The notes under the pieces: model-generated | Told to the model about the DNA's origin: nothing | The model's database searches: none | Seen by the model: the letters and a program-made list of their open reading frames with translations, nothing else | Assembly: GCA_964590105.1 (NCBI GenBank) | Contig: CAZPYM010000004.1 | Span: 1-40,008 of the forward strand | DNA length: 40,008 bases | Direction: 5' to 3' | Source: an uncultured Gammaproteobacteria bacterium | GTDB taxonomy: Bacteria; Patescibacteriota; Patescibacteriia; UBA11705; JABHMO01 | Part shown: positions 3,424-25,551 of the stretch, in pieces | Layout: each line of letters begins with the position of its first letter | Position numbering within the stretch: the stretch's first letter is position 1 | Translations under genes and position numbers: made by a program

Positions 3424-4254
3424 ATGACCCAATTTGACTCACAATTCAAAGCCGCTGTTCTGCGCATTATGAATGAAGGCTTTGATGAATACAATGAACG
3501 CACCGGCCACACCTGCAAGGTACTGCCCGGCATTACTTTTGAATTGGACAAGGGCTTTCCTCTTTTAACCTTGCGCAAAATTCCGATTAAACTTTTTGTT
3601 GCCGAACAAATATGGTACATTATGGGAAGCAAAACTCCTGGTGACTTTGTTAATAAATTCACCAAAATCTGGGAAGACTTCACAGAAGAAGACGGCACAG
3701 TGCCGGCGGCTTACGGACACCGCTGGCGGCATGCTTTTGGCCGAGACCAACTTGGTCTCCTGGTTAAACATTTAACGGAAAATCCCGGCTCAAGACACGG
3801 CGTTGTCGTAACCTGGGATCCGCGCGAAGATGGCCTAGGCAATCCCGAAGGCAAAAAAAATGTTCCCTGCCCCTATACCTGGACCGCCAATATTATTGGC
3901 AATAAACTGCACATTCATTCTGTAATCCGCTCCAATGACATGATGCTCGGCTGTCCTCACGACGTAGCTGGATTTGCCCTCCTGCTGGCAATCCTAGCCG
4001 GCAAGCTCGGCGTTAAGCCTGGCAAATTAACTCATACCATTTCCAACGCTCATATTTACGACACGCATTTTCAGCAGGCCTGGGAACTTATTGAGAGAGA
4101 AAACAATCATTCGCCGATTTACTTTGAAGCGCAAGCTGATTATTTTGACCGCGCCGAGACTGGCGACGAAACGCTGGTTGAGGACATTACCAATCTCTTG
4201 CAAAAACAATATAACCCGCTGGAACCGATTAAGGGGATTAAAATAGTGCTTTAA
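3424..4254 (+). CDS. thymidylate synthase (ThyA) family enzyme with Asp at the Asn177-equivalent position (276 aa from ATG 3424; the ORF opens at TTG 3412)
   Basis: Collinear with E. coli ThyA by eye: NERTG, GFPLLTLRK, AYGHRWR, catalytic Cys in VPCPY (3868-3870), and RSNDMMLGCPHDVAGF with Asp at 3961-3963. Confidence 0.85.
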   Translation: MTQFDSQFKAAVLRIMNEGFDEYNERTGHTCKVLPGITFELDKGFPLLTLRKIPIKLFVAEQIWYIMGSKTPGDFVNKFTKIWEDFTEEDGTVPAAYGHRWRHAFGRDQLGLLVKHLTENPGSRHGVVVTWDPREDGLGNPEGKKNVPCPYTWTANIIGNKLHIHSVIRSNDMMLGCPHDVAGFALLLAILAGKLGVKPGKLTHTISNAHIYDTHFQQAWELIERENNHSPIYFEAQADYFDRAETGDETLVEDITNLLQKQYNPLEPIKGIKIVL

Positions 4255-4258
4255 AATT

Positions 4259-4780
4259 ATGAAAGTAATTTTGATGATGGTCATCACCGCCGACGGTTTT
4301 ATCGCCAAGAGCGCCAATCAGCCGTCAATTGAATGGACGTCAAAAGCGGACAAAGGAATTTTTGTTGAACGGACTAAAGCGGCCGGTGTTATTATCATGG
4401 GACTATCCACCTACAAAACCATTGGCAAGCCCTTGCCCGATCGGCTGAACATGATCATGACCTTCAAGCCAGAGAAAGAAATAAGCATCCCCGGTCAATT
4501 AGAATACACAAACAAACCGCCGGACGAACTGCTCGCAGAACTTGAAACTCGCGGATTCAAAGAAGTGATTCTCGGCGGCGGCTCTATGGTCAATTCACTA
4601 TTTTTAAAAACTGGGCTGGTTAATGAATTACAGATCACGATTGAACCGATTTTATTTGGTGGCGGACTCACATTATTCAAGGATTTAGATTTAGATATTA
4701 AACTTGAACTTATAGAAATGAAAAAATTAAATGATAATGTAATTAATCTAAGATACAAAATAATTTCCACCCCACTTTAG
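4259..4780 (+). CDS. RibD C-terminal-domain type dihydrofolate reductase family protein (173 aa)
   Basis: MMVITADGFIAK..., IMGLSTYKTIGKPLPDR and VILGGGSMVNSLF are typical of the RibD_C/DHFR-like family. Positioned 4 nt after the ThyA-like stop. Confidence 0.7.
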   Translation: MKVILMMVITADGFIAKSANQPSIEWTSKADKGIFVERTKAAGVIIMGLSTYKTIGKPLPDRLNMIMTFKPEKEISIPGQLEYTNKPPDELLAELETRGFKEVILGGGSMVNSLFLKTGLVNELQITIEPILFGGGLTLFKDLDLDIKLELIEMKKLNDNVINLRYKIISTPL

Positions 4781-4837
4781 TGGCTCTCCCGCCCCGGCAG
4801 TCGAACTGACTAAAGTCAGGCAGAAATTTATCTCATT

Positions 4838-5518
4838 ATGTCTATCCTCACCAAGAAACAAATTCTGGAACGGCTTAAAAATCAGCAAATTTCATTTTCG
4901 CCCGAATTGGATGAATATCAGCTGTCGCCAAACTCAATCGACCTGCGCGTCGGCTGGAGTTTTTATGTGCCTCACTCCTGGAAAATGAGCGACAAAGGAC
5001 GCGTGGCTGTAAATGCTGATTATTTAAATTATCAAAACACAGAAGAATACCTAAAGTTAATTAAATTAAGCCCTGGTCAATACTTTGAAATTTTACCAAA
5101 AGAATTTATATTAATTTCTACGCTAGAAAAAATCACCTTAAATTGTGGCGACGTTGCCGGCATGTTATTGCCAAGAAGCTCTGCTCTTCGCCGCGGACTG
5201 CAAATTGAAACCGGCATGATCGACTGCCGCTACAATGGCCAGCTAACAATTCCCGTGGTAAACAATTCATATCACATAATAAAGATTTATCCGGGCGAGC
5301 GAATCTGCCAGATGCAACTTTATAAACTTGACGGTGAATTAAACGAAGAAGACGCAAAAAAACACGGTAAGCAGGAGGCCAAATATGTTGGCTCAACTCC
5401 CTATAGTTTAGAAGCTCGACACGACGCCGATGAAGAGATCGACTTATTAAAAGCCGGCAAAATTAATGAATTAAAAGATCAGTTTAGAATACAAACCGAA
5501 GAACAAAAAAATGCTTAG
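4838..5518 (+). CDS. dCTP deaminase/dUTPase-superfamily (Dcd-like) protein with a C-terminal extension (226 aa)
   Basis: Dcd-like N-terminus (ILTKKQILERL, SIDLRVG), PRSSALRRG and GMIDCRYNGQ. The Glu138-equivalent position appears to be Pro (5252-5254). Confidence 0.75.
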   Translation: MSILTKKQILERLKNQQISFSPELDEYQLSPNSIDLRVGWSFYVPHSWKMSDKGRVAVNADYLNYQNTEEYLKLIKLSPGQYFEILPKEFILISTLEKITLNCGDVAGMLLPRSSALRRGLQIETGMIDCRYNGQLTIPVVNNSYHIIKIYPGERICQMQLYKLDGELNEEDAKKHGKQEAKYVGSTPYSLEARHDADEEIDLLKAGKINELKDQFRIQTEEQKNA

Positions 5519-5984
5519 CAGCTATGCCTCTTCCAAACCATATCCCTTCATCCATCCTAATGGAAAAATTTTTTATGTTTCTGAGAAAAACAAGTTCATT
5601 CAAGCGGCTCAGTGTATTGCCGAACGTTCCGGCTGTATCAAACAAGCAACAGGGGCTGTAATTGTTATAAACGACGAAATAGTGGCTTCGGGCAGTAACG
5701 CAGGAATTCGAGTCAAGGTCTGCCCCAGGGTAGAGGAAAAATGTCCGACCGGAACCGGCTACCACCATTGCCGAGAAACCTGCAAACAAGAAGGCCATGC
5801 TGAACAAATGGCTATCAAAGATTTACTGAACAAAAATATTGTTCACTCTGAACCGGCGCTGTATCTCTGGGGGCATTGGTGGTGTTGCGAGCCATGCTGG
5901 GATGCTATGATGACAGCAGGGATTAGAACTGTTTACTTGGTCGAAAAAGCAACAGAACTTTTTGACCTTGACGCTTCAAAATAA
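5511..5984 (+). CDS. dCMP deaminase (cytidine/deoxycytidylate deaminase zinc-binding family), 157 aa
   Basis: HAE zinc/catalytic motif (EGHAEQMAI) and a downstream CCEPC (PCxxC-type) motif. Overlaps the Dcd-like gene by 8 nt. Confidence 0.8.
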   Translation: MLSSYASSKPYPFIHPNGKIFYVSEKNKFIQAAQCIAERSGCIKQATGAVIVINDEIVASGSNAGIRVKVCPRVEEKCPTGTGYHHCRETCKQEGHAEQMAIKDLLNKNIVHSEPALYLWGHWWCCEPCWDAMMTAGIRTVYLVEKATELFDLDASK

Positions 5985-6037
5985 AAAGCCAGTAATAAGT
6001 TAAATAGTGAATCTTGGACTCCCTACTCACCAATCTT

Positions 6038-6613
6038 ATGAACAAAATTCTCGCCCTCGTCGGCATGACCGGCTCGGGAAAAAGCCTGGTCGCCGACTAT
6101 CTGGTTCAAAAAGGCTGGGGTTTTGCCCGCTTCGGCCAAATCGTGCTCGACGAAGTAAAGGCTCGCGGGCTGGAACCGACTGAGGCAAATGAACGACCAA
6201 TCCGCGAACAAATGCGCGCCGAACACGGCATGGCGGCCATGGCTATTTTAAACATCCCAAAATTTAACAAAATTCTACAGGAGAAAGGTCTAGTCGCCGA
6301 CGGACTATATTCATGGTCCGAATATAAAGAATTAAAAAAATATTATGGCGATCGATTATCAGTCATTGCCATATACTCACCGCCCAAATTGCGCTACGAA
6401 AGACTGACCGGTCGCACGCTCAAATCGACTGACAAAGAACTTCGCAATCGCCCGGCAACCGAAGAGCAAGCTCAGGCTCGCGATTTTGCGGAAATTGAAA
6501 ATATTGAAAAAGGCGGACCGATCGCCATGGCTGATTTTACGATTCTGAATATCAAAGGAAAAGATTATGTGTACAAACAGCTTGATAAAATCATCCAGAT
6601 ACTATGCTTTTAG
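6038..6613 (+). CDS. P-loop nucleotide kinase (dephospho-CoA-kinase-like / UPF0200-like), 191 aa
   Basis: Start moved to the ATG at 6038. Walker A LALVGMTGSGKS at the N-terminus. Size and layout fit a small NMP-kinase fold. Substrate unknown. Confidence 0.6.
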   Translation: MNKILALVGMTGSGKSLVADYLVQKGWGFARFGQIVLDEVKARGLEPTEANERPIREQMRAEHGMAAMAILNIPKFNKILQEKGLVADGLYSWSEYKELKKYYGDRLSVIAIYSPPKLRYERLTGRTLKSTDKELRNRPATEEQAQARDFAEIENIEKGGPIAMADFTILNIKGKDYVYKQLDKIIQILCF

Positions 6614-7032
6614 ATATAAAATTAATCGACAAAACTCTTCCCCTGCCAGAATACAAAACCAAAGGCGCGGTCGCCTTTGATCTATATTCGAGAACTGACA
6701 TTGAAATTCCGCCACAAAAACTAATTTTAGTTCCCCTGAATGTAATAATCAAAATACCAAAGGGTTATTTTTTATTAATGGCGGCGCGCAGTTCTCTTCC
6801 TGTCAGAAAAGGCATAATGTCAGCTAATTCAATCGGTATTTTTGATGAAGATTTTTACGGCAAAAATGATGAATGGCGATTTGAAGCCTATAATTTTACT
6901 TATGCTCTGATAAAAATAAGCCGAGGAGAACGCATTGCTCAGGCAATGCTGATAAAATTCGAGCGAGCTGAATTCAATCAGATTGAAATAATAAAAGACA
7001 GTTCGCGAGGAGGCATTGGTTCGACAGGATAA
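6604..7032 (+). CDS. dut: trimeric dUTPase (142 aa)
   Basis: dUTPase motifs GAVAFDL, ARSS, GIFDEDFYG, ERIAQ and C-terminal RGGIGSTG. Confidence 0.9.
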   Translation: MLLDIKLIDKTLPLPEYKTKGAVAFDLYSRTDIEIPPQKLILVPLNVIIKIPKGYFLLMAARSSLPVRKGIMSANSIGIFDEDFYGKNDEWRFEAYNFTYALIKISRGERIAQAMLIKFERAEFNQIEIIKDSSRGGIGSTG

Positions 7033-7040
7033 ATCAATAT

Positions 7041-8030
7041 ATGAATATTCAAATTCAAGGGATGAGACCAAACTTGCTGATTTTTAGATTTGAAAAAATT
7101 TCCAGGCTGGCTTTTATTAAAATCATTACTGAATTCAATATTTTTTCTTATAAAACGCAAAAGCTGTCTGAAAATTATATCGATGCCGCCCTGGAACAAG
7201 ACGAGCTCTATAAATCATTGCTACCGGAGCTTGAAAAGCTAGAAGCCATAACCAAGAAGGAGCATTTTCAAACTCTCGGACAACTGCTTGACGCAGAAAT
7301 CGCTATTTCAGAATTTGCTTTTTCCGGCTTCATAAAAAAATTATCAACAAACAGTTTGCCGGAATTAAACCGACTGGCTGAAAACATTTGTTTGCAAAGA
7401 GGCGTCAGCTGTCCGGCCAGGCAAAACGATACAATTAAAAACTGCCAGGTAAGCGAAACGCCACGACAGCAGGAAATAAAACTCCTTGATGTTGACCGTT
7501 CATTTGAAAACAAAATTCTTTTTTATTATCTGCGCGCCAGTAGCACTGAAAACACTGAAAAAGTACTGGAAAGAGTTGAATTACTGACAATGGAACAAAA
7601 GGAAATTATGTTTCAAAACATTTTCAGCGCCGGAATCAGCACTTGTCTGCCCAAAATTATCCTTGAACACCAATTTTGTTCACTTCAGCTAAGCGACACA
7701 CTGCACAATTTTCAAGCGCTCATGCTTTGCCCGCAAACCCGTTTATTTTTTGAACCTTTTTCTACAAAGCATGGCTACCTAATGCCGGAGTCAATAATTC
7801 CAGCCGGGCAACAAGAGCTCTTTCTGACAACTATGGAAAAAATTAAAAAATACTTTTTGGAAACCGGCAACCAATATATTATTCCGCAAATTTTCAGGCA
7901 AAATGCGCTGGTAAGCTTAAACCTATTGCAATCATTCATAATCAAACGCCAGCAAGCTCAATCAGTTCTCATTAATCAGCTACTCAATCAAATATATCAA
8001 GAGCTTCCGTTTTTAAAAACTCTTAACTGA
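7041..8030 (+). CDS. hypothetical, mostly helical protein (329 aa), unrecognised
   Basis: Long ATG ORF in the same orientation and tightly packed within the nucleotide block. I could identify no motif. It ends with TGA. Confidence 0.5.
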   Translation: MNIQIQGMRPNLLIFRFEKISRLAFIKIITEFNIFSYKTQKLSENYIDAALEQDELYKSLLPELEKLEAITKKEHFQTLGQLLDAEIAISEFAFSGFIKKLSTNSLPELNRLAENICLQRGVSCPARQNDTIKNCQVSETPRQQEIKLLDVDRSFENKILFYYLRASSTENTEKVLERVELLTMEQKEIMFQNIFSAGISTCLPKIILEHQFCSLQLSDTLHNFQALMLCPQTRLFFEPFSTKHGYLMPESIIPAGQQELFLTTMEKIKKYFLETGNQYIIPQIFRQNALVSLNLLQSFIIKRQQAQSVLINQLLNQIYQELPFLKTLN

Positions 8031-8036
8031 TTTACT

Positions 8037-8675
8037 ATGCAAAATTTTCCGGGAAAATTTATTGTGTTTGAAGGCGGCGAAGGCACGGGCAAGACCACAC
8101 AAATAAAACTGCTCGCCGAAAAACTAAAGCAAAACAGCTTCAATGTTTTCCTGACCCGCGAACCGGGCGGCACCAATTGTCCTATTGCTGAAAAAATTCG
8201 TTACATGCTAAAAGATCCGGAAAACAAAAACATGTGCACGGAAACTGAATTATTCCTGTTTCTGGCTTCCCGCGCCCAGCATGTCAAAGGCGTCATCCTG
8301 CCCCATCTGCGCCGGGGAGACGTGGTTATTTCAGATCGATTTTTCGGTTCCACCCTTGCATATCAACATTTTGGCCGCGGACTATTCAACCTGGAAGAAG
8401 TAAAAAAAATCAATGAATTCGCTACCGGCGGCTTGGAACCGGAACTGACAATACTACTGGATATTGACCCCAAGAAAGGCTTAGAAAGAATAAAAGAACA
8501 TATTGCCAGTGATCGACTGGACAGTGAGACATTAGCCTTTCACGAAAAGGTCCGTGCCGGTTACCTAACCCTGGCCAAAATAAAACCAGACTGGCAGGTC
8601 ATCCCGGCCGATTCAACTATTGACGGCGTTCATTTGCGCATTTGGAATAGCGTTTGCGAAGTCTTGGATTTATAA
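8037..8675 (+). CDS. tmk: thymidylate kinase (212 aa)
   Basis: FIVFEGGEGTGKTTQ P-loop, DRF motif (SDRFFGSTLAYQ), and typical Tmk length. Confidence 0.93.
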   Translation: MQNFPGKFIVFEGGEGTGKTTQIKLLAEKLKQNSFNVFLTREPGGTNCPIAEKIRYMLKDPENKNMCTETELFLFLASRAQHVKGVILPHLRRGDVVISDRFFGSTLAYQHFGRGLFNLEEVKKINEFATGGLEPELTILLDIDPKKGLERIKEHIASDRLDSETLAFHEKVRAGYLTLAKIKPDWQVIPADSTIDGVHLRIWNSVCEVLDL

Positions 8676-8691
8676 CCGAAAGGAGGCCTAT

Positions 8692-9318
8692 ATGTTTCGA
8701 CGAGGCTGTATAGAGCTTATTATTGGCGGCATGAGGGTTGGTAAAACAGCCCAAGGGCTGGAAAGATTGAAACAAGAAAGCTTTGCCAAAGGAAGAAAAG
8801 CAATGATTTTCATTCCCCGCGGCTCTGACCGAGAGGTTGAGCTGGACAGTTGAGAAAAAGTAAAAACAAACGGTCGTGCAGTCTGCCGCAGCGGTATTAT
8901 CATTACTGAAACCGTCGAATTTGACAAAAACAATCCACGGGAAATTCTGGCGCACATTACGCCGGATTTGACTACGGCTTTCATTGATGAAGCTCACTTT
9001 TGCTCTGACGAACTGGTGTCAGTGGCCAAAGAACTGGCGGAAAAACATAGACTGCGCGTCATCATTGCTGGCCTTGATCAGACCTTTGAGGAAATTCCAT
9101 TCGGACCAATCCCAAAACTGGCCTGCGAAGCAGACTTTGTCACCAAACTCCAGGCTGTCTGCATGTACTGCGGCGACGCGCCGGCTACCAAAAGCTGGCT
9201 CCATCCAAGGCTGCGCTCGCAAGTCAAAGAAGGGTCTGTCCATGTAGGCGACAAAGACTATTTGTCTGTTTGCCGGCATTGTTTCCGGCTACTGGAGGAG
9301 AATCCTCCGACATGTTAA
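8692..9318 (+). pseudogene. tdk: thymidine kinase interrupted by one in-frame TGA (8851-8853)
   Basis: AAAGGAGG RBS then ATG at 8692. N-terminal part IIGGMRVGKT; C-terminal part FIDEAHF, IIAGLDQTF, and CxxC..CxxC (CMYCG, CRHC). Both parts are in the same frame (8620 and 8968 are both 1 mod 3), and TGA is the only stop between them. Confidence 0.8.
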
Positions 9319-21939: not shown

Positions 21940-22707
21940 TCACTGCCCCTTGATTATCAACATGTTTTTCCCGCCTTCCAACATTTTAGCCTGCTTTATT
22001 TCATCCTCGTCCTGTTCATCATACGGCCGGTAAATTTCGCCGCTTGTTTTCACTGACAAATCATGATTAGCATTGATTATAACTGAATAATCGTATTTAA
22101 ATCCCTCTCCCCTGCGCGTGCCCACATCATTAGTAATAAATTGTTTTTCTGTATAGCCGCGGATTAAAAGAAAATGATATATCGGACCGGGCTGAGTATA
22201 ATATGGATTGCCAAGCTCTCTGCCGGCCATTGGCATTAAAATCAAATAACCCTGATCAAGCTGATTCTTTATATTTTCAATTGTTATGTTTTGCGTTATT
22301 TCACTTTGCAGACCGAAATATTCATCCGCCATAATCTTCACTTCTGATAATGTAGTGTCAGAATACAAACCAAACTGCTGTTTTTCCCATTCAACCAATT
22401 TTTGGATTTCCTGATCCATTATTTCCGGAGTTAGATTTTCTTTGGCAAAATATTTTGCCGCCAAAATCAATGCCGACTCTTCGCAAGCTTCCTGATATGG
22501 CAGGTCCCAATTGGCCATCGGAGCTTGCGAGGCAAAAAGCACCGGGATATTTACTTGTTCGCTTTTGCCCGGCTTCAACTCTTGCGCAGTCTGCTGAAAA
22601 TCCGCTTTATCCAATTCCATTAATTTATTGCCAATATCAAACAAAGGCGCCGCCGTGCAACCGGTAAGCATTATCATTATAAAAAAACATAGAATTATTC
22701 GCTGCAT
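21940..22707 (-). CDS. lipoprotein with C39-like (papain-fold) peptidase domain (255 aa)
   Basis: Start moved to the ATG at 22707. Lipobox MLTGC. Q...W...EACEESALILAAKYF and later HFLLIRGY...NDVG match the Cys/His pattern of Peptidase_C39-like domains. Confidence 0.65.
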   Translation of the reverse strand: MQRIILCFFIMIMLTGCTAAPLFDIGNKLMELDKADFQQTAQELKPGKSEQVNIPVLFASQAPMANWDLPYQEACEESALILAAKYFAKENLTPEIMDQEIQKLVEWEKQQFGLYSDTTLSEVKIMADEYFGLQSEITQNITIENIKNQLDQGYLILMPMAGRELGNPYYTQPGPIYHFLLIRGYTEKQFITNDVGTRRGEGFKYDYSVIINANHDLSVKTSGEIYRPYDEQDEDEIKQAKMLEGGKNMLIIKGQ

Positions 22708-22817
22708 ATATTCATTGTAGCAGATATTGGGCGAAAATAGCAAAAATTGCCTAAATTTGATGACCAGACGTGTCAGACCTTTCTCGCTTGACTCAAAGAA
22801 CTTATTCGCAGACCAGC

Positions 22818-22846
22818 TTGACAAGTTCTTTGTTTTAATATAAAAT
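22818..22846 (+). promoter_or_regulatory. rpmA promoter (TTGACA, 17 nt, TAAAAT) embedded in an inverted repeat CAAAGAACTT...AAGTTCTTTG
   Basis: -35 at 22818-22823 and -10 at 22841-22846. The 10-nt inverted repeat arms are at 22794-22803 and 22823-22832. Confidence 0.55.
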
Positions 22847-23263: not shown

Positions 23264-25438
23264 TTACTCAGGGAAGCATTCGAAGTCTGTAAACCACACT
23301 TCCCCTTCACCGGCCGAATCTATCAGGCCGGGAATTTTTGTTTCAAACTCATGGTCGCACTGAATCACAGCCTCTGCCGGATCAAAGCACGCCCACTCGT
23401 TTGGATATTTGCAGGCGCAGTTGAAATCAATCCAGGCCGCGCCTCGCTCACATATTTCCCCGATTGTTGAGCTAAAGCTAGCCGCGCCCCCCCCGCTCGC
23501 TTGGCCAGAAGCGCCATACCAGACAAAAGCCTTCATGTCAGAGGGACAAATGACAGTGCAATTAACGCTGTCGCTTTTTTCTGGTTCTTCGTCGCCTTCA
23601 GGCTCATCTATCGGCTCCGGCACAAACTCCGGCTCCGGTTCATTTTCAGGCTCTGGCTCATATTCCGGATCTGGTGCCGGATCTGGTGTCGGATCATCTT
23701 CCGGTTCAATTTGTATTGCGACGCAAGCGCCGGCAAAACAAAGCTTTCCGGAAGGACACAGCTCGCCCTCGTCAATCTGGCCGTCGCAATCGTTGTCAAC
23801 GGCGTCGCAGACTTCGAACGGAACAGATCCGCATTGGCCGCAAGCGTTTTTCACGCCCTCGTCAATCTGACCGTCGCAATCGTTATCAACGGCGTCGCAG
23901 ATTTCAATCGGAACAGCTCCACATTGGCCGCAAGCGTTTTTCACGCCCTCGTCAACCTGGCCGTCGCAATCATTATCAACGCCGTCGCAGATTTCAATCG
24001 GAACAGCTCCACATTGGCCGCAGACGTTTTTCACGCCTTCGTCAATCTGGCCGTCGCAATTATTGTCAACGCCGTCGCAGATTTCCATCTGGCCGGGAAA
24101 AACATTCTGATCGCTATCGTCGCAATCACCGGCGTCCGCTGAAATGCCGTCGCCGTCATTGTCGATTGTCAGCTGAAATCCCTGCCAACCCTGGCCATAC
24201 TCATTGCTAGGGTTAAGGCATTGCTGACTTTGCTCCGTCGTAATCAAACTGCCAATATTCTGCAGGCTGGCATAGAACTGATCCTGTCCCACCAGTGTGA
24301 CCGGCAGCTGATCATAGCCCATCTCGCAAAACAGGTTCCAATTTTCAAACGGCAAAAGTTCGCCATTGTGGACAGCCACGAAAACCGCGCCCGGACCATA
24401 GCCCGGCACGCTAAAGGTCGGCTTTACCAACGTGCCATGACGCACATAGAGCAGGCCGCCACTCGCATACTTGCTGAAATATTTTACTTCCGCTTCTGAA
24501 ACGTTCAGCTGTTTGACCATTCCCTGAATATTCCAGGAATTAAAGCTGACAGCCGATGAAAACTGATAGACAGAGCCGCCGCTCGAACCGAGTGACTGCT
24601 TTTCCATCAGATAATATATTTCCCCCACTTTGAACAGCTCGCGATACGGCTGCCAATTGATTTCGCCGCCGTACGAGTAACATTCAAATTCGCTCTCTGA
24701 AATCTGAATCACTTTTTGCCAGTCAAAGTTATGGGCGTTGAAAACCGCCTCATTGATAATCCAATGCGCCTTGCCATCGATCAAAACATAAATCTTGGCA
24801 TCGCCCGCAACCTGAATCAGCGAACCGTCAGGATGCCAGGAAACCGGCGAAGTGTCTACAAACAAGCTAGCGTAATTGGATGTCTGCCATGAAGCCAAAA
24901 ATTGGTTATGGCTGTAATAATTGTACTCGCCGAGGGTCTTGCCCGGGTCGTGCACAATCACTTCAGTTTCATTCAGGCCGACCAGCAGCATGAAATGTCC
25001 CTGCTTTTGCGGATCCATCTGAATATTGACCGCCACAATGATTGGATTGCCTTTGGACAATTTGTCCGCCAGAAGATCCAGATCGTTTTTGTTTTGCTTG
25101 ACCAACGGGCCCAGCTTGAAATACCCGGCCAGCACATTGGACAAAAGAGCCATGGTCGTGGCATTGCCGTCATAATAATCAGCGCCCGGCTGGGGGCTGA
25201 GATAATTGTTTTCGTAGAGCCAATCAATAACAGCCTTGAGGCCGTCTTCTGTTGGCGCGAAGTCAAGGTAATAGCCGGCCAGCATAAGAGCTGAAGCCGG
25301 ACCGCAGTTCATATTCTGGCTCCAGTCGCCGGGCGGTGACTGAGATTTGAACTGCACATTGTCGAGCTGAATGTCCGCGGCTCTCGCCGGCAGAACAAAG
25401 ACAACTAAACTGCCAAGAATCATTAGCCAGCTTTTCAT
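23264..25438 (-). CDS. large secreted protein: signal peptide, C39-like peptidase domain, central domain, 4x Cys/Asp-rich DNDCDG repeats, Pro/Glu-rich linker, Cys-rich C-terminal domain (724 aa)
   Basis: Start moved to the ATG at 25438, preceded by AAAAGGAGGCAGCG (MKSWLMILGSLVVFVLPARA). NCGPASALMLAGYY and GHFMLLVG..VHDP. Repeats are CDGVDN(D/N)CDGQ(I/V)DEGVKNxCGQCG. Confidence 0.8.
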   Translation of the reverse strand: MKSWLMILGSLVVFVLPARAADIQLDNVQFKSQSPPGDWSQNMNCGPASALMLAGYYLDFAPTEDGLKAVIDWLYENNYLSPQPGADYYDGNATTMALLSNVLAGYFKLGPLVKQNKNDLDLLADKLSKGNPIIVAVNIQMDPQKQGHFMLLVGLNETEVIVHDPGKTLGEYNYYSHNQFLASWQTSNYASLFVDTSPVSWHPDGSLIQVAGDAKIYVLIDGKAHWIINEAVFNAHNFDWQKVIQISESEFECYSYGGEINWQPYRELFKVGEIYYLMEKQSLGSSGGSVYQFSSAVSFNSWNIQGMVKQLNVSEAEVKYFSKYASGGLLYVRHGTLVKPTFSVPGYGPGAVFVAVHNGELLPFENWNLFCEMGYDQLPVTLVGQDQFYASLQNIGSLITTEQSQQCLNPSNEYGQGWQGFQLTIDNDGDGISADAGDCDDSDQNVFPGQMEICDGVDNNCDGQIDEGVKNVCGQCGAVPIEICDGVDNDCDGQVDEGVKNACGQCGAVPIEICDAVDNDCDGQIDEGVKNACGQCGSVPFEVCDAVDNDCDGQIDEGELCPSGKLCFAGACVAIQIEPEDDPTPDPAPDPEYEPEPENEPEPEFVPEPIDEPEGDEEPEKSDSVNCTVICPSDMKAFVWYGASGQASGGGAASFSSTIGEICERGAAWIDFNCACKYPNEWACFDPAEAVIQCDHEFETKIPGLIDSAGEGEVWFTDFECFPE
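23765..24090. repeat. 3.6 tandem copies of a 90-bp (30-codon) near-identical coding repeat
   Basis: Units start at 23765, 23855, 23945 and 24035, with only a few substitutions between units. In frame within the 724-aa gene. Confidence 0.9.
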
Positions 25439-25509
25439 CGCTGCCTCCTTTTGCCGAAACAATCCATCCTTATCGGATGTGTTCCGGCGGCTTTGGGTTT
25501 GCGGTTTTG

Positions 25510-25551
25510 GCACGCAAAGCAGAAGCGCAATTTCGCTTCTGCTTTGCGTGC
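25510..25551. other. 18-bp perfect stem hairpin (GCACGCAAAGCAGAAGCG-CAATTT-CGCTTCTGCTTTGCGTGC) between two minus-strand genes
   Basis: Read directly. There is no U-tract on the minus-strand side; GATGTTTTGTTGTT follows on the plus side. Confidence 0.8.

Follow-up and report, generated by a model that had tools for sequence, protein, structure and literature searches.

Phage enzymes that act on cytosine nucleotides

Among the characterised members of the thymidylate synthase (TS) family that the cited papers discuss, the residue that reads the pyrimidine base is Asp in the cytosine-utilising enzymes (Asp179 in phage T4 CH, Asp186 in MilA, and BcmA) and Asn in the uracil-utilising ones, namely TS and deoxyuridine monophosphate (dUMP) hydroxymethylase (PMC5175136), and the TS mutants N177D and N229D turn into deoxycytidine monophosphate (dCMP) methylases (PMC8670742). 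In the MetaGPA analysis, positions Ec177 and Ec147 (the prefix Ec denotes E. coli ThyA numbering) best separated the TS homologues of cytosine-modified virome contigs from those of unmodified ones (PMC8670742). The TS homologue of phage Xp12 has been shown experimentally to make 5-methyl-dCMP, and it and 5 of 7 metagenomic homologues of the Asp type yield 5-methyldeoxycytidine (5mdC) in E. coli with T4 deoxynucleoside monophosphate (dNMP) kinase, while some virome Asp-type homologues are predicted to make 5-hydroxymethyldeoxycytidine (5hmdC) (10.1101/2024.12.05.627091). Deaminases encoded beside Asp-type TS genes are selective for 5-methyl- and 5-hydroxymethylcytosine nucleotides and have been proposed as suppliers of thymidine triphosphate (dTTP), and mSCD-B5, a deaminase encoded in cis, works at the triphosphate level (10.1101/2024.12.05.627091). 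Both the dCMP-methylating homologues and the coupling of thymidylate synthesis to a deaminase are thus already known from phages. Here we analyse a 40,008-nucleotide stretch of DNA from an ultra-small bacterium of the Patescibacteria (the window: contig CAZPYM010000004.1 of assembly GCA_964590105.1, forward strand, positions 1-40,008), in which the open reading frame (ORF) at 3424-4254 encodes a TS-fold protein with Asp at the base-reading position, hereafter the window TS. On balance we favour the reading that this protein is a dCMP C5-methyltransferase and part of a housekeeping thymidylate route across the Patescibacteria, in which the cytosine nucleotide would be methylated and then deaminated; the narrower proposition, that its substrate is dCMP, we hold with somewhat greater confidence.

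By searching 50,697 phage records, we found that the best phage matches to the window TS come from the Xp12-like group, comprising Mallos, Donnerlittchen, RDJL Phi1/2, PaMx-type and Achromobacter phages. Pairwise comparisons of the window TS gave the following values:

RDJL2 TS: 39.5% identity, E = 6e-53
Xp12 TS: 38.7% identity, E = 3e-49
Mallos TS: 37.2% identity, E = 2e-50
E. coli ThyA: 26.4% identity, E = 6e-28
T4 dCMP hydroxymethylase (dCH): 24.6% identity, E = 7e-14

The initial annotation, made from the DNA letters, had predicted an enzyme that (hydroxy)methylates cytosine nucleotides at C5, and this prediction gains support from the kinship just described, since the nearest tested relatives are the Xp12-type makers of 5-methyl-dCMP (38-39% identity, against 26% for ThyA). 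The Xp12-type enzymes (Xp12, PaMx74, Mallos, RDJL; EC 2.1.1.54) share with the window TS the fold, Asp177, Pro147 and Phe83 (E. coli numbering), a hydrophobic residue at Ec165 (Leu in Xp12, Ile in the window) and insertions or deletions such as the AWDP..DG.G...KN(V/I)PCP segment, and in both cases the gene neighbours a Zn deaminase and a RibD_C-type dihydrofolate reductase (DHFR). The two groups differ in that the window gene is cellular and chromosomal, unlike the Xp12 phage gene, in that the Patescibacteria enzymes have Asn at Ec205 and His or Gln at Ec127 where the Xp12 type has His and Arg, and in the C-terminus, which is longer and more TS-like in the window TS.

A neighbour-joining (NJ) tree of 151 sequences, treated as indicative only because it carries no bootstrap values, placed all Asp-type sequences in a single clade separate from the Asn-type ones. 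Within the Asp-type clade the Patescibacteria sequences form a tight subclade, with Xp12 and Mallos elsewhere in the clade; the phylogenetic check that the initial annotation had proposed puts the window TS in the clade that also holds Xp12 TS.

Active-site residues and their co-variation

The TS gene and the codons on which the assignment turns are as follows, with residue numbers of the window TS unless marked otherwise:

3424-4254, + strand: ThyA-fold enzyme of the Asp type and candidate dCMP C5-methyltransferase producing dihydrofolate (DHF) (PF00303; public annotation, thymidylate synthase)
3868-3870, + strand: Cys149 codon TGC, the catalytic nucleophile equivalent to E. coli C146 by alignment, invariant among aligned relatives
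3961-3963, + strand: Asp180 codon GAC, the base-reading position, equivalent to E. coli N177, T4 dCH D179 and MilA D186
3871-3873, + strand: Pro150 codon, in place of E. coli His147; Pro in Xp12 TS too, Thr in T4 dCH
3925-3927, + strand: Ile168 codon, in place of E. coli Gln165; Leu in Xp12, Met167 in T4 dCH
3679-3681, + strand: Phe86 codon, in place of E. coli Trp83, in the folate/C-terminus region

The ORF opens with the ATG at 3424 and encodes 276 amino acids, a length shared by most close homologues. Residues 7-233 match Pfam PF00303 (Thymidylat_synt) with E = 5.7e-49 and 167 bits (cutoff 24.3), and the protein matches PHROG 160 with E = 1e-63. Seven NCBIfam ThyA equivalog models score it far under their cutoffs (for example, 134 versus 327), and the NCBIfam model TIGR03284 (thymidylate synthase) is barely exceeded, at 109.9 bits against 108.35. 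The AlphaFold2 (AF2) model has the TS fold (pLDDT 83, pTM 0.86), and its best Foldseek matches in the PDB are all TS, with TM of 0.75-0.80 and E of about 1e-20; because Foldseek gives no residue-level superposition, this step confirms the fold alone.

At the level of residues, the seven motif blocks that the initial annotation had aligned by eye with E. coli ThyA are all present, collinear and correctly placed, those of the N-terminal half starting at residues 24 (NERTGHTC), 44 (GFPLLTLRK), 95 (AAYGHRWR) and 120 (NPGSRHGVVVTWDP), and those of the C-terminal half at 147 (VPCPY), 169 (RSNDMMLGCPHDVAGFALL) and 208 (NAHIY). In HMMER alignments with five solved thymidylate synthases, RSNDMMLGCPHDVAGFALL lies over RSADIFLGVPFNIASYALL and Asp180 falls on the base-reading Asn, and MAFFT alignments with E. 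coli ThyA also put Asp180 at Asn177. Profile and pairwise alignment thus agree that the base-reading residue is Asp instead of Asn, and both codons singled out earlier, the catalytic Cys at 3868-3870 and the Asp (GAC) at 3961-3963, are confirmed. The T4 segment cited in the initial annotation, RSNDVVFGFRND, also proved right, D179 being its final residue. The E. coli ThyA reference sequence has the literature residues at 18 of the 18 numbered positions checked, and the T4 gp42 sequence can be aligned over all 246 residues to PDB 1B49/1B5E without a visible mismatch.

Canonical ThyA (E. coli, L. casei, human) and the window TS have in common the fold, the C-terminal closure segment and the partnership with DHFR, together with the catalytic Cys, Glu58, Tyr94, Arg21/126/166, Ser167, Asp169, His207 and Tyr209 of the E. 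coli enzyme; the catalytic equivalents C149, E61, Y97, R169, S170, D172, H210 and Y212 of the window TS are invariant in its relatives. The two differ at Asn177 (Asp in the window type), His147 (Pro), Gln165 (Ile/Val), Trp83 (Phe) and Arg127 (His). Gln165 of E. coli ThyA orients the Asn177 carboxamide. T4 dCH (gp42; PDB 1B5D/1B5E) has Asp at the base-reading position with the identical RSND-x7-D spacing and is noncanonical at the same further positions as the window TS, with Thr149, Met167 and Val85 at Ec147, Ec165 and Ec83.

To follow these residues across relatives, we used three sets of sequences. The first holds the 120 closest database homologues of the protein, which are 65-86% identical to it and whose source names are Kuenen-, Falkow-, Uhr- and Doudnabacteria and 'Patescibacteria group'. 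The second was obtained by scanning a single genome for each GTDB species, which gave 363 genomes with a close TS relative, and from which 80 loci were retrieved; these cover the Kuenen-, Falkow-, Magasanik-, Jackson-, Moran-, Harrison-, Doudna-, Portnoy-, Wildermuth-, Shapiro-, Woese-, Nomura-, Colwell- and Paceibacteria and the Gracilibacteria, and with the window protein they make up an 81-sequence set of Patescibacteria (candidate phyla radiation, CPR). The third, of distant relatives, consists of the best 150 matches obtained when 1.84 billion 50%-identity representatives were searched exhaustively with HMMER.

Asp occupies Ec177 in 120/120 of the closest homologues and in 81/81 of the Patescibacteria set, which is far beyond chance. 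The initial annotation had named dUMP-specific close homologues with this Asp as evidence that would count against it; the Asp is kept throughout, and none of these homologues is a known dUMP-specific synthase. All 81 Patescibacteria sequences also have Pro147, Phe83, His or Gln at 127 and Val, Ile or Leu at 165. Among the 150 best representatives, 126 have Asp at Ec177, nearly all of these with Phe83 and most with Pro147 and a residue other than Gln at 165. The Asn type accounts for 18 of the 150 and appears only at E > 1e-33; its members have Trp83 and Arg127 in 18/18 cases and His147 in 17/18, with Gln (13) or Met (5) at position 165. Because the Pro147, Phe83 and residue-165 changes co-vary with Asp177, the Asp is no isolated substitution but one of several linked changes that remodel the pocket where it surrounds the N3/C4 edge of the base.

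The gene cluster and a proposed route to thymidylate

The window TS gene heads a series of co-directional, tightly packed genes spanning 3424-9318, in the order TS(Asp), DHFR, DCD-family protein, Zn deaminase, UPF0200/AdkA-like kinase, Dut, an ORF with no family match, Tmk and Tdk. The genes with a family assignment that matter here are:

4259-4780, + strand: DHFR of the Thermotoga maritima/RibD_C type, four bases downstream of the TS gene, which would recycle DHF
4838-5518, + strand: DCD-family protein, scored 'dCTP deaminase' (deoxycytidine triphosphate, dCTP) by NCBIfam TIGR02274 (101.4 against a cutoff of 92.8), with the Pro139 codon at 5252-5254
5511-5984, + strand: member of the Zn-dependent cytidine/dCMP deaminase family, carrying HAE and CxxC motifs (PF00383, E = 9e-10)
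6014-6613, + strand: P-loop kinase, UPF0200/AdkA-like, a possible (d)NMP kinase (Pfam AAA_18; PDB 3LW7 and 3H0K, E about 6e-13)
6604-7032, + strand: trimeric dUTPase Dut with C-terminal motif V (Pfam dUTPase, E = 8e-20)
8037-8675, + strand: thymidine monophosphate (dTMP) kinase Tmk, the presumed consumer of the pathway product (TIGR00041, 175.5 bits against a cutoff of 83)

Synteny was counted as the presence of a neighbour gene near the TS gene in the 80 retrieved Patescibacteria loci. The DCD-family gene is found in 68, the Zn deaminase in 67, DHFR in 59, Tmk in 38, the kinase in 20 and Dut in 15.

The DHFR assignment bears on the chemistry of the window TS. The window DHFR matches the characterised T. 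maritima enzyme (PDB 1CZ3/1D1G) over its full length with E = 2e-25, both Pfam DHFR_1 and RibD_C match it, and its identity to the Xp12 DHFR is 27.7% (E = 5e-9); the gene adjoins the TS gene in all 59 genomes counted above. The C-terminus of the window TS, YNPLEPIKGIKIVL, aligns with the closure segment of E. coli ThyA, YDPHPGIKAPVAI. The DHFR neighbour and the TS-like C-terminus both indirectly favour a reductive, DHF-producing transfer, and the earlier suggestion that the enzyme would transfer a methyl rather than a hydroxymethyl group is supported to that extent, given a genuine DHFR next door with its conserved synteny and the retained C-terminus.

The DCD-family protein is at odds with its own name. 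Pro139 lies opposite the catalytic Glu of 'LEL', in the motif that follows the GxID segment, in HMMER alignments with four solved Dcd structures, and MAFFT alignment against E138 of E. coli Dcd agrees. This Glu is missing in 69/69 syntenic orthologues (Pro in 64, Ser in 3, Asn in 2) and in 120/120 database homologues (Pro in 114, Ser in 5, Ala in 1), and those of the database homologues that bear source names are called 'dCTP deaminase'. Because the residue is absent from all of these relatives, the DCD-like protein is not expected to be a dCTP deaminase, and by this criterion it cannot deaminate dCTP, which removes one apparent source of dUMP from the operon. It is probably a nucleotide pyrophosphatase, for which candidate roles would be a dCTPase feeding dCMP, a cleaner of 5-methyl-dCTP or a second dUTPase; its matches among solved structures include dUTPases. 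The only phage matches are ordinary Dcd of haloarchaeal viruses, at about 28% identity, and are uninformative.

The Zn deaminase matches the dCMP deaminase of PDB 2HVV weakly (E = 1.7e-6) and has no significant similarity to the Xp12 deaminase. We predict that it would deaminate 5-methyl-dCMP (or 5-methyl-dCTP) to yield thymidylate. A dCMP deaminase three genes downstream of the TS gene had been noted initially, and the order DHFR, DCD-like protein, deaminase bears this out; the accompanying idea that 5-methyl-dCMP could be deaminated to dTMP now has a phage precedent, the synteny in 67/80 genomes and a natural deaminase-TS(Asp) fusion beside it. The zinc-ligand motif of the window deaminase reads HWWCCEPCW where (F/S)PCxxC is usual, and a Cys-rich insert, CPRVEEKCPTGTGYHHCRETC, precedes HAE; WWCC is seen again in P0325, a fused homologue.

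The analysis shows directly which residues are present, how they are conserved and co-vary, the clade to which the protein belongs, the synteny and the fusions; we infer which nucleotide is used and what is made from it, the sequence of reactions and the roles of the neighbouring genes, including the specificity of the hydrolase. The pathway that follows is drawn from the conserved synteny and the Xp12 precedent. The DCD-family protein would hydrolyse a deoxynucleoside triphosphate (dNTP), most usefully dCTP to dCMP, or would clear 5-methyl-dCTP. TS(Asp) would then methylate dCMP: following the family mechanism, Cys149 would attack C6 of dCMP, Asp180 would read and protonate the N3/N4 face of cytosine, and the one-carbon unit of 5,10-methylene-tetrahydrofolate (THF) would be transferred and reduced by the folate hydride, giving 5-methyl-dCMP and DHF. 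The adjacent DHFR would regenerate THF, the Zn deaminase would convert the 5-methyl-deoxycytidine nucleotide to thymidylate, and Tmk would phosphorylate dTMP.

Three gene fusions join parts of this set. In P0140 (locus L088, 10001-11302) the Zn deaminase is fused to TS(Asp) on a phage-like contig with a ribonucleotide reductase (RNR), and the DCD-like gene nearby is of the Pro type; P0160 joins a MazG/PRA-PH pyrophosphohydrolase to TS(Asp), and P0325 a Pro-type DCD-like protein to a Zn deaminase. The Xp12 module holds an NTP hydrolase (HAD/MazG type), TS(Asp), a dCMP deaminase and DHFR. By analogy, the Patescibacteria module would be its functional counterpart with a different hydrolase, the Glu-less DCD-family protein standing in the window where Xp12 has a MazG/HAD enzyme, and it also differs in having Tmk within the operon. 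In the phage mSCD-B5/Xp12 route as in the window, an Asp-type TS is accompanied in cis by a Zn deaminase from the dCMP-deaminase family, and the role proposed in both cases is to make thymidine nucleotides from 5-methyl-deoxycytidine nucleotides with no dUMP-dependent TS; the phage route stands in a context of phage DNA modification, whereas that of the window would be cellular housekeeping.

Several observations weigh against this reading. The ordinary route, which deaminates before it methylates, would also account for the genes present (NTP hydrolase, deaminase, TS, DHFR and Tmk), and neither gene order nor the fusions settle the order of steps. A canonical Dut is present in the window operon and in 15/80 genomes, and a dUTPase of the archaeal type is just as plausible an identity for the Glu-less DCD-like protein; Dut, and possibly the DCD-like protein, would supply dUMP without a consumer in the proposed model. 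The nearest experimentally tested enzyme is only about 38% identical to the window TS, 2 of the 7 metagenomic Asp-type homologues gave no 5mdC (10.1101/2024.12.05.627091), and the placement in the NJ tree comes without bootstrap support. No second TS and no ThyX were seen within the 40-kb window or about 1.1 Mb of flanks in the 80 related genomes, a coverage so limited that this is weak evidence.

The remaining genes of the operon have some features of their own. The NCBIfam model 'anti-phage dCTP deaminase' has a kinase-like half, to which the UPF0200-like kinase shows a weak match. Dut scores 92.8 bits with TIGR00576, under the cutoff of 102.55, has a three-residue insertion in motif III (GIFDEDFYGKNDEWRFEAYN) and carries a Glu at the column of the catalytic Glu of Dcd. 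The 329-aa ORF at 7041-8030 has no match in Pfam, NCBIfam or PHROGs, and a homologue stands at the same position in only 4/80 related loci. The thymidine kinase gene (8620-9318) has a single in-frame TGA at 8851-8853, which could be a sign of a pseudogene, a sequencing error or read-through; its orthologues in L008 and L017 are intact, and in loci L011, L013, L014 and L040 a single frame free of stops spans both Tmk and Tdk, suggesting a fusion.

Alternative explanations and distribution

The first alternative is that the window TS is an ordinary dUMP-dependent thymidylate synthase that tolerates the Asp, for example protonated in a hydrophobic pocket, with the deaminase and the dUTPase or dUTPases supplying dUMP for TS, DHFR and Tmk. 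The public annotation and the borderline TIGR03284 score name the protein thymidylate synthase, its overall fold is nearest canonical TS (TM 0.75-0.80), it keeps R26, E61, W83, Y97, R124, C149, R169, S170, D172, H210 and Y212 (window numbering), and Dut, the deaminase and Tmk share an operon with it, where the Glu-less DCD-like protein could be a dUTPase as well. We nevertheless consider this explanation unlikely. The characterised family members discussed in the cited papers have Asn if they use uracil and Asp if they use cytosine (PMC5175136, PMC8670742), and Asn-to-Asp mutants shift in preference from dUMP to dCMP; the Asp of the window TS co-varies with three more active-site changes common to proven cytosine enzymes, the whole Asp-type clade lies apart from the Asn-type TS in the NJ tree, and two dUTPases in one operon would be redundant.

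A second alternative accepts the methylation of dCMP and differs in the fate of the product: 5-methyl-dCMP would be phosphorylated, perhaps by the UPF0200 kinase, and built into DNA, with 5-methylcytosine (5mC) standing for some or all cytosine as in Xp12, while the deaminase would channel some of the pool into thymidylate and the DCD-like protein, as a dCTPase, would keep dCTP out. The cluster matches the Xp12 module part for part (NTP hydrolase, TS(Asp), deaminase, DHFR), an extra gene resembling nucleoside monophosphate (NMP) kinases is present in the window operon and in 20/80 genomes, and a dCTP-binding hydrolase would be expected to resemble just such a Glu-less protein derived from Dcd. 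In addition, mSCD-B5 acts on the triphosphate, and a 5mdCTP pool is therefore implied (10.1101/2024.12.05.627091). On the other side, the kinase is found in 20/80 clusters against 38/80 for Tmk, and the greater frequency of Tmk suggests that the product is dTMP; our literature searches, none of them aimed directly at this question, brought up no report of bulk 5mC in CPR DNA. To our knowledge, wholesale base replacement is not known in cellular organisms. We regard this alternative as unlikely, and likewise the bolder proposal that Patescibacteria replace much or all of their cytosine by 5mC before replication, besides using the methylated nucleotide for thymidylate, with the DCD-like protein as dCTPase. 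If it were true, these would be the first cellular organisms that we know of to use a non-canonical DNA base wholesale.

A dCMP hydroxymethylase making 5-hydroxymethyl-dCMP in the manner of T4 gp42, with no DHF formed, seems very unlikely. It would explain the Asp at the base-reading position and the RSND...D spacing identical to that of T4 dCH, and some virome homologues of the Asp type are predicted to make 5hmdC. T4 dCH, however, hydrates rather than reduces the methylene intermediate, forms no DHF and ends before the C-terminal closure segment, which the window TS has kept. The genuine DHFR immediately adjacent to the window TS, syntenic in 59/80 genomes, counts against a hydroxymethylase because a DHFR would be pointless if no DHF were formed. 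Identity is 25% to T4 dCH against 38-39% to the Xp12-type methylases, and no glycosyl-, carbamoyl- or other transferases of the kind that accompany 5-hydroxymethylcytosine (5hmC) were seen within the window.

A ribonucleotide substrate, CMP as in MilA and BcmA, was also considered and judged unlikely: the window TS keeps S170 (the Ser167 equivalent), His210 and Tyr212, and the ribo-specific MilA and BcmA have Ala at the Ser167 equivalent (PMC5175136). Finally, the proposal that the gene is recently acquired cargo of a prophage or mobile element with no housekeeping part in the host, which draws on the fact that its nearest relatives of known function are phage enzymes and that phage-like contigs carry related modules, is effectively refuted by ordinary chromosomal surroundings (nusG, rplK and rplA upstream of the cluster; gatB, miaA, miaB, mraY, murD, ftsW and prs downstream) and by a broad, monophyletic distribution, with 363 species-level genomes from many Patescibacteria classes, a tight CPR clade and conserved synteny.

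The spread of this TS type over many Patescibacteria classes suggests vertical inheritance. Since the enzyme type and its coupling to a deaminase are known from phages and we found no cellular description, what is new is the cellular, chromosomal use: the conserved presence, in the chromosomes of a major bacterial radiation, of a phage-type module with a cytosine-methylating 'thymidylate synthase', predicted here from sequence, appears to be undescribed. Our literature search found no paper on a dCMP methylase or a 5-methyl-dCMP thymidylate route in Patescibacteria/CPR or other cellular organisms; a paper on thymidylate synthesis in Asgard archaea makes no mention of CPR or dCMP, and one on CPR from hyperalkaline settings handles thyA and folA as ordinary genes.

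Conversion of dUMP to dTMP, catalysed by ThyA or ThyX, is regarded as universal among cellular organisms, and drugs are widely targeted at it. Should a dCMP methylase be the sole ThyA-fold enzyme of Patescibacteria, their thymidylate would arise by way of 5-methyl-deoxycytidine nucleotides, a route so far confined to a few phages, and metabolic reconstructions of the group would change. Two families would then be misannotated, 'thymidylate synthase' in at least 363 species-level genomes and 'dCTP deaminase', with its 120/120 homologues lacking the Glu. A dUMP-sparing pathway could also matter for how organisms whose DNA repair is minimal avoid uracil, the enzymes could be a source of cellular dCMP methylases, and possibly of 5mC-selective deaminases, for methylome-sequencing technology, and pre-replicative 5mC in Patescibacteria DNA would become a directly testable question.

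Two further observations concern the records and the rest of the window. Many GTDB representative records with the cluster (for example L011, L012, L015 and L021-L030) are titled 'uncultured Gammaproteobacteria bacterium' or 'uncultured Candidatus Saccharibacteria bacterium', which are probably placeholder or wrong organism names for metagenome-assembled genomes (MAGs) of CPR. Unrelated to the TS gene, the minus strand at 23264-25513 encodes a 749-aa protein with a Peptidase_C39-like domain and four MopE-type metal-binding repeats, and a second C39-like protein is encoded on the same strand at 21940-22824.

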